Shown: positions 53,915-54,094 of the stretch, one piece after another
Position numbering within the stretch: the stretch's first letter is position 1
Layout: every line of letters starts with the position of its first letter
The notes under the pieces: model-generated
Told to the model about the DNA's origin: nothing
The model's database searches: none
Seen by the model: only the letters and a program-made list of their open reading frames with translations
Made by a program: the position numbers and the translations under genes
DNA from: Cladosporium halotolerans
Taxonomy: Eukaryota
Length of the DNA: 64,000 nt
NCBI RefSeq assembly: GCF_011745625.1
Contig: NW_027191473.1
Span: 124,001-188,000 of the forward strand
Reading direction: 5' to 3'

Positions 53915-54062
53915 GGCACTTTGGGTACGCCTCTCTCCCCCACCACACGCCCCTTCCGACCAATCACCTCGAGTACTGACTTTCGTCCCAGCGGAGTGGT
54001 TAACGCGCAGCCCTGCTAAGGCTGTCTCTTCGGAGGCGTGTGTTCGAATCACACAGGTGTCG
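53915..54062 (+). tRNA. tRNA-Ser(GCT): tRNA-Ser(GCU) split by a 67-nt GT-AG intron at position 10/11 (exon 1 53915-53924, exon 2 53992-54062)
   Basis: Acceptor GGCACTT/AGGTGTC (7 pairs, 2 of them G-U), U8, and D-arm GCG-GAGTGGTTAA-CGC. Anticodon arm CAGCC-CTGCTAA-GGCTG, long variable arm CTC-TTCG-GAG, T-arm GTGTG-TTCGAAT-CACAC and discriminator G. Confidence 0.88.
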
Positions 54063-54084
54063 GATGGGTGCGAATCTGTTCAAA

Positions 54085-54094
54085 TTTTTTTTTT
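54085..54094 (+). terminator. Oligo(T) RNA polymerase III terminator
   Basis: T10 run 22 nt downstream of the tRNA discriminator base. Confidence 0.75.

Follow-up and report, generated by a model that had tools for sequence, protein, structure and literature searches.

The window, a 64-kb stretch of DNA analysed over its full length, carries at 53915–54062 what is probably (we put the odds at roughly two in three) a functional nuclear tRNA-Ser(GCU) gene interrupted by a 67-nt U2-type GT–AG spliceosomal intron at tRNA position 10/11. Removal of the intron, the spliceosome as the agent of that removal and the identity of the polymerase are each points that we infer from signals and their conservation. 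By Pfam content and intron style, the host is fungal and filamentous-ascomycete-like. Elsewhere in the window, Pfam identified a PDR-type ABC transporter, a four-domain GH35 beta-galactosidase, a CDH cytochrome domain and DUF2985, and a ferric reductase gene lies directly upstream of the tRNA locus, at 50698–52947.

The split tRNA-Ser(GCU) locus and its first exon

The initial annotation had given coordinates for exon 1, the donor, the branch site, the acceptor, the tRNA body and a T10 run, and all of these held. The elements of the locus and its upstream region are as follows, read from the sequence unless another basis is given in brackets.

53861–53875, + strand: AT-rich, TATA-like CATAATACTAAAATG, 40–54 nt upstream of exon 1 (putative function)
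53881–53899: overlapping CCAAT / TGACGTCA / GTCACGTGAC cluster
53915–53924, + strand: exon 1, GGCACTTTGG, tRNA positions 1–10 (acceptor pairing and sequence)
53925–53991, + strand: 67-nt GT–AG insert, intron 1 (sequence; removal restores the tRNA)
53925–53930, + strand: intron donor GTACGC
53974–53980, + strand: branch site TACTGAC
53987–53991, + strand: acceptor CCCAG, with CAG at 53989–53991
53989–53999, + strand: A-box-like CAGCGGAGTGG in genomic DNA (10/11 matches to the consensus TRGCNNAGTGG)
53992–54062, + strand: exon 2, tRNA position 11 to 73 (Rfam match; ARAGORN cloverleaf after insert removal)
54015–54017, + strand: anticodon GCT, within the loop CTGCTAA
54041–54051, + strand: B-box-like TGTTCGAATCA in the T arm
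54043–54049, + strand: T-loop TTCGAAT
54055–54061, + strand: acceptor 3′ strand AGGTGTC
54062, + strand: discriminator G (G73)
54063–54094, + strand: 22-nt 3′ trailer, then T10 (54085–54094), a Pol III-type terminator

Exon 1 contributes the 5′ strand of the acceptor stem (GGCACTT), U8, G9 and G10, and pairs with the 3′ strand of the stem at 7/7 positions, two of the pairs being G–U. Exon 2 holds the D arm, anticodon arm, long variable arm, T arm, acceptor 3′ strand and discriminator G. Within the insert, the branch A is 53979, 12 nt ahead of the last intron base. A G precedes both junctions, so the mature sequence is compatible with a 9/10 junction (GG..CA) too; GT..AG is obtained in the 10/11 register only. 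No insert follows position 37 in the sequence of this locus, as had been reported for the 37/38 site.

ARAGORN returned 0 tRNAs for the 64-kb window, and the Rfam tRNA model gave only a truncated match (53990–54054, 37.6 bits, model positions 9–63 of 71), bearing out the expectation that standard finders would miss or truncate the locus. After in silico removal of the 67 nt, ARAGORN drew a tRNA-Ser(gct), whereas the unspliced sequence gave nothing. A Ser(GCU) profile built from the 63 unique uninterrupted genes among the metagenome matches listed aligned with the spliced window sequence over positions 2–82 (71.2 bits) and with the unspliced sequence over positions 10–82 (62.6 bits). The features of a class II Ser(GCU) cloverleaf (7-bp acceptor stem, U8 and G73) were complete only with 53925–53991 removed. 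The prediction that this deletion would yield a full Ser(GCU) tRNA, and from the spliced form only, was therefore correct for both ARAGORN and the profile. The closest listed metagenomic gene, L083, was identical to the spliced window tRNA in 76 of 81 aligned columns.

The 5′ end of the family was examined in a metagenome collection scanned with a pattern covering tRNA positions 10–38, the anticodon stem left free, which gave at least 119 loci. Among the 119 matches listed, 110 were continuous genes with 6–7 acceptor pairs, five were too incomplete for judgement (L008, L031, L041, L051 and L099), L095 and L107 were cut at the 3′ end, and L009 and L018 were split; 22 of the 119 listed had an insert at 37/38. 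Exactly GGCACTTTGG opens 17 of 115 listed uninterrupted genes, the denominator comprising listed loci with sufficient upstream sequence that were neither split nor 5′-cut. Across both strands of the window the same sequence occurs once, at 53915–53924, against an expectation of 0.16 per window, and the chance that it would lie, correctly oriented, in the ~80 nt before the tRNA body is roughly 1e-4. Because of this single occurrence, the identical 5′ ends in the metagenome and the profile match over positions 2–82, exon 1 is, by sequence comparison, the authentic 5′ end of the Ser(GCU) tRNA family.

Split genes in a metagenome and in related contigs

L009, L018 and the 5′-cut L041, all from one unrelated metagenome and among the matches listed, were compared with the window locus. 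Apart from its missing 5′ end, L041 has the same split architecture as L009 and L018. In these two, GGCACTTTGG is followed by a 53- or 54-nt insert and then by CGGAGTGG, which runs from position 11 on; the intron-1 inserts read GTAAGC...CTAAT...TTCAG and GTAGGT...CTGAC...ATCAG. All three genes contain a second insert, 51 nt long, that separates TTCC from TTCGGGAGC within the variable arm and has a GTAAGT/GTAAGG donor, a CTAAC/CTTAC box and a TAG/CAG acceptor, and in all three a T4–T5 run lies 8–10 nt past the gene. ARAGORN drew a tRNA-Ser(gct) when both inserts were removed and nothing when intron 2 was retained. With intron 1 alone retained it drew aberrant alternatives, which for L018 involved a poor alternative acceptor stem with two mismatches and C replacing U8; unlike L018, the window tRNA gave no ARAGORN alternative with its intron kept.

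Between L009 and L018, exon 2 is identical at 37/37 positions and exon 3 at 34/34 (71/71 together), while intron 1 is identical at only 31/61 positions and intron 2 at 39/51. The window intron shares 39/69 and 33/72 positions with their first introns. Identical exons alongside divergent introns are what one would expect, at the sequence level, if the introns are functional and selection acts on the gene.

Four sequencing runs were compared with the locus at the level of contigs, and the 30.1 Mb of contigs from one of them, X9, were examined in full. In X9 the entire stretch of the locus lies inside one 28.9-kb contig with 0 differences. Only two X9 contigs match the tRNA, the one with the locus and another of 43.6 kb that carries a second copy at its end; their depths over the tRNA body, 31.6 and 34.6, sum to 66.2. 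The second copy matches 53986–54062 with eight differences and is then unlike the window. Upstream it is visible for 30 letters ahead of 53986, part of the 3′ side of an intron, and these end ...CAATCACTAACAACGA; before position 11 the contig reads ...CACTAACAACGA followed by TCCCAG. It thus presents a textbook fungal branch box, ACTAAC, then 10 nt and a CAG adjoining position 11, the distance from branch site to acceptor being 12 nt. Four of its differences are visible (54023 T>A, 54024 G>A, 54026 C>T and 54027 T>C), and the L005-type Ser(GCU) variant has the same four. That variant and the window tRNA differ at exactly eight positions, every one of them in the paired strands of the anticodon stem and variable arm. 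Because of this match to the variant in complementary stem strands, the second copy looks like an intact tRNA variant and not a decaying one, although we infer four of the eight differences.

The initial annotation had asked whether an intron-free Ser(GCU) gene exists. None was seen in the 30.1 Mb of X9 contigs, where the only other copy has ACTAAC...CAG before position 11. Because X9 may be the same sample from which the window was assembled, and because a filter may conceal some records, this absence is good evidence and not proof, strong but not final.

A further run, X12, represents another organism, with flanks roughly 90% alike. One X12 contig of 604 nt spans 53857–53933, covering exon 1 and the first 9 intron nt, with seven differences, and two others read, before position 11, ...TTCTAACATCCA followed by TCCCAG and ...TCACTAACAAATC followed by CCCAG. 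Among the paralogues and related loci, the GT, the branch site and the YAG are kept while the interior diverges, as had been anticipated for an alignment of related loci. Of the remaining runs, X2, which has RNA on record, overlaps 54457–54500 only, and X10, of uneven depth, spans 53500–53953 and 54156–54308, outside the tRNA body. A junction of 53924 with 53992 was seen in none of the four runs, all of them contigs, and this weighs neither way on splicing.

Intron type, transcription and maturation

The inserts share a GT donor with G at +5 (GTACGC in the window; GTAAGC, GTAGGT, GTAAGT and GTAAGG in L009, L018 and L041). GTACGC is not the commonest donor form in fungi, and we counted this against the spliceosomal reading. 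The branch A lies 11–12 nt from the intron end in 6/6 readable intron-1 sequences, and intron 1 ends in CAG in all seven cases seen; the sole non-CAG acceptor is the TAG of intron 2 in L009.

A search of the window for introns bridging open reading frames gave 23 overlapping candidate mRNA introns, about 11 of them distinct, all of which are predictions. They measure 46–121 nt and have GTAAGT, GTAAGC or GTACGC donors (the last in one candidate), CTRAC boxes and YAG acceptors. The box lies 9–13 nt from the end in the clearest candidates (2648–2700, 39008–39074, 41312–41363, 41807–41858, 48893–49013 and 36169–36224), and 39008–39074 is, like the tRNA insert, 67 nt long and C-rich. The claim that the insert resembles the mRNA introns of the window stood, its length and signals falling inside the range of the ~11 candidates, and judged by these sequence features the tRNA insert is indistinguishable from the organism's presumed mRNA introns.

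Other intron classes were considered. No bulge–helix–bulge could be fitted, the central 4-bp helix reaching 0–2 of 4 pairs in five complete introns and three registers, and the inserts fit the endonuclease-type (TSEN) class neither on this ground nor by position, which is 10/11 rather than 37/38. Self-splicing group I and II introns were rejected because their folds need some 200 nt or more and the inserts measure 51–67 nt; Rfam found no family but tRNA above threshold in the window. A repeated mobile intron was sought as well, and the 64-kb window held no second copy, the best other match being 13 nt. Runs of four or more T are absent from the five complete introns, and one of the 11 candidate mRNA introns has one. 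Avoidance of Pol III terminators was dropped as an argument, since candidate mRNA introns mostly lack T runs too and the feature does not discriminate.

The intron's terminal AG occupies the R9/G10 places of the A-box-like element, and its standing in for these bases may be the reason that 10/11 is the site where an intron is tolerated. The element lies ~75 nt downstream of exon 1. A tRNA gene usually starts ~10–20 nt upstream of its A box, and if transcription began within the intron, exon 1 would be lost; this promoter geometry is awkward for the spliceosomal reading and counts against it. The upstream region is GC-rich apart from a single AT-rich peak, the TATA-like element at 53861–53875, which is the only candidate seen for setting the start ahead of exon 1. 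Upstream of 52 listed uninterrupted fungal-type genes, AT-richness showed no more than a weak rise near the gene, and comparing them with the split genes does not pin down the promoter. The CCAAT cluster at 53881–53899 leaves RNA polymerase II open as the enzyme. RNA polymerase III most likely transcribes the gene, given the intact box-like elements and the T run found after each of the split genes.

Under the spliceosomal reading, a transcript would begin ahead of exon 1 and extend through T10, most likely made by RNA polymerase III. The spliceosome would recognize GUACGC, UACUGAC and CAG, the intron would leave as a lariat, and GGCACUUUGG would be joined to CGGAGUGG. U8, G10 and the D stem would be positioned only after splicing, with 5′ and 3′ trimming and CCA addition to follow. 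The minimum-free-energy structure predicted for the precursor still has the acceptor stem, closed across the intron, and this pairing could bring the splice sites together.

Rival readings and known systems

It is unlikely that the locus is an insertion-inactivated pseudogene with an accidental likeness to an intron, Ser(GCU) being supplied by another gene. Inserts in the D or T arm of eukaryotic tRNA genes are usually deemed marks of a pseudogene, according to the accessible text of PMC4090602. Against this, the same insertion point and splice signals recur with differing inserts in the second X9 copy, in two X12 contigs and in three metagenome genes, and exon conservation is 100% against ~50% likeness in intron 1 (L009 versus L018). 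The visible differences between the X9 copies fit compensatory stem changes, no uninterrupted copy was seen among the X9 contigs, and the terminator and box-like elements are intact. A very improbable reading has transcription start inside the intron to give a 5′-truncated tRNA-like RNA with another role, exon 1 being a relic. The genomic A-box-like and B-box-like elements are intact, as it would predict, and the usual distance from A box to start puts the start within the intron. A relic, however, would not keep the family 5′ end abutting GT in separate lineages, the genome would be left without a visible source of Ser(GCU), and the variable-arm intron of L009, L018 and L041 would still need removal for a tRNA-like fold.

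That the intron is real and is removed by proteins only, whether the tRNA splicing endonuclease or a different endonuclease acting with a ligase, we regard as quite improbable. Some eukaryotes do have non-canonical nuclear tRNA introns that an endonuclease removes, the D arm included (PMC4090602, in the portion available), and the predicted precursor fold, in keeping the acceptor stem, could present a tRNA-like body to such an enzyme. The poor bulge–helix–bulge pairing described above speaks against this route, as does the ruler mechanism of the eukaryotic enzyme, which the same portion of that review ties to 37/38; it would also leave unexplained a constant GT, CTRAY at 11–12 nt and CAG amid a divergent interior. 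Explanations outside these three and the spliceosomal one would likewise have a small likelihood.

In the full-text literature (subscription-only papers and supplements lying outside the scope) no tRNA gene turned up that is described as carrying a spliceosomal or mRNA-type intron, in agreement with the initial annotation, which had supposed spliceosomal maturation of a tRNA to be undescribed. Bhattacharya and colleagues reportedly described, around 2000, ascomycete nuclear rRNA genes with spliceosomal introns; these are said to be likewise mRNA-type introns in a non-Pol II gene, but one transcribed by Pol I and encoding much larger RNAs.

Reviews and tools were in keeping with this in the portions of each that were available. 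Yoshihisa 2014 (PMC4090602) does not use the stem 'spliceosom' in that portion, lists endonuclease-type introns only as non-canonical (nucleomorphs and C. merolae) and regards the remaining D- and T-arm inserts as probable pseudogenes. The accessible text of Phizicky and Hopper 2023 (PMC10275265) names the spliceosome once, as a contrast to tRNA splicing, and that of the permuted-tRNA review PMC3978253 names spliceosomal introns once, for protein-coding genes. In their available parts, a 2026 review on tRNA genes of photosynthetic organisms (PMC13578239) makes no mention of spliceosomal tRNA introns, PMC12530127 (2025) handles spliceosomal and tRNA introns as unrelated classes, and tRNAscan-SE 2.0 (PMC8450103) models non-canonical introns for archaea only.

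A precedent for spliceosomal splicing of a Pol III transcript is the mRNA-type intron of U6 in S. pombe, the species where such introns of fungal U6 genes were first found (Tani and Ohshima 1989, 1991, cited in the accessible part of PMC5855946). Fungal U6 snRNA introns likewise place a short GT..branch..AG in a small structured Pol III non-coding RNA gene, their interior is not conserved between genes, and one gene can hold up to four (PMC5855946, same part). Here, in contrast to U6, the host is a tRNA and no component of the spliceosome, the intron lies upstream of the internal A box, and the usual origin story (reverse splicing into the RNA of the catalytic centre) is not obviously applicable; polymerase and splicing are, moreover, putative here. 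Fungal U3 snoRNA introns, as treated in the available text of Canzler, Stadler and Hertel 2017 (PMC5832005), also have normal spliceosomal signals and a constrained branch–acceptor distance, with insertion positions common within lineages and most cases computational; they cluster in the 5′ stem-loop, whereas the intron here splits the acceptor/D-stem junction of a tRNA.

Among tRNA introns, canonical 37/38 TSEN introns are likewise nuclear inserts that require removal before function, but differ in position (10/11 and variable arm here), signals and presumed enzyme. The ectopic nuclear tRNA introns known from Cyanidioschyzon merolae and from the nucleomorphs of cryptophytes and chlorarachniophytes resemble the present one in being away from 37/38, D arm included, in genes that sometimes hold more than one intron and are missed by standard finders (PMC4090602 and PMC3728597, in the parts available). 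According to the same parts, those introns depend on a bulge–helix–bulge or measure just 3–24 nt and are ascribed to the tRNA endonuclease; the ones described here have no bulge–helix–bulge, measure 51–67 nt and carry GT, a branch box and YAG.

Extending the reading from this locus to its family, we see evenly balanced chances that all nuclear tRNA-Ser(GCU) genes here and in relatives carry one or two, perhaps three, spliceosomal introns. These would form a third, undescribed class of nuclear tRNA intron, with 10/11 kept since the intron's AG replaces promoter bases 9–10. Because both Ser(GCU)-like genes seen carry an intron, the decoding of AGC and AGU as serine would depend on the mRNA-splicing machinery. 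A spliceosome-dependent tRNA would unite the mRNA- and tRNA-splicing pathways. If the spliceosomal reading is true, tRNA would join U6 as a second class of Pol III transcript processed by the spliceosome, and catalogues of fungal tRNA genes could silently miss an essential isoacceptor. The gene would also offer a small natural substrate for the action of the spliceosome on a short, structured, uncapped RNA and a handle on how introns enter non-coding RNA genes, and the translation of two serine codons would hinge on splicing.

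Coverage and sequence upstream of the gene

The ferric reductase gene lies upstream of the tRNA-Ser(GCU) gene, and we compared the stretch 3' of it with contigs of sequencing run X10. Over 53500-53781, X10 yielded a contig with a depth of 63.8 that ends near 53781, beyond which a depth-7 contig carries on to 53953. Were X10 an RNA run, the 3' UTR of the ferric reductase gene would extend to ~130 nt before the tRNA, and exon 1 would be covered by weak read-through.

Features flanking the tRNA-Ser(GCU) gene (window coordinates)
53521-53784: block with ~90% identity to X12 (contigs of a related organism)
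53785-53856: 72 nt, in place of which X12 has 38 different letters
53857-53933: second block with ~90% identity to X12
53881-53899: overlapping CCAAT, TGACGTCA and GTCACGTGAC, 16-34 nt 5' of exon 1
54085-54105: T10 terminator run with an 11-G run directly 3' of it

Conservation with X12 restarts immediately 5' of the AT-rich stretch that precedes exon 1. Within the cluster at 53881-53899, TGACGTCA is a CRE-like palindrome and GTCACGTGAC a 10-nt E-box palindrome; by their sequence, these elements and CCAAT look like polymerase II factor sites. None of the three was found upstream of L009 or L018, two metagenome Ser(GCU) genes split at 10/11.

Intron positions in Ser(GCU) genes

In L009, L018 and a third split gene of the same metagenome (L041), the variable arm holds a further spliceosomal-type intron of 51 nt, flanked by TTCC and TTCGGGAGC and showing 76-78% identity from copy to copy. 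A single tRNA gene can therefore carry two mRNA-type introns. Another Ser(GCU) gene from this metagenome (L031) is uninterrupted at 10/11, and within its final 20 bases the 5' strand of the T-stem (GCGAG) leads into GTAAATA, where the T loop is expected, before the contig ends. Read from these bases, GTAAATA may mark a third intron position, at 53/54.

Ordinary inserts of 14-25 nt 3' of position 37 were present in 22 of 119 metagenome Ser(GCU) loci among the matches listed (for example, L006, L022 and L036), in genes with acceptor types GTCACTT, GTCGCTT or GGCGCTT, indicating that canonical Ser(GCU) introns are common in other lineages.
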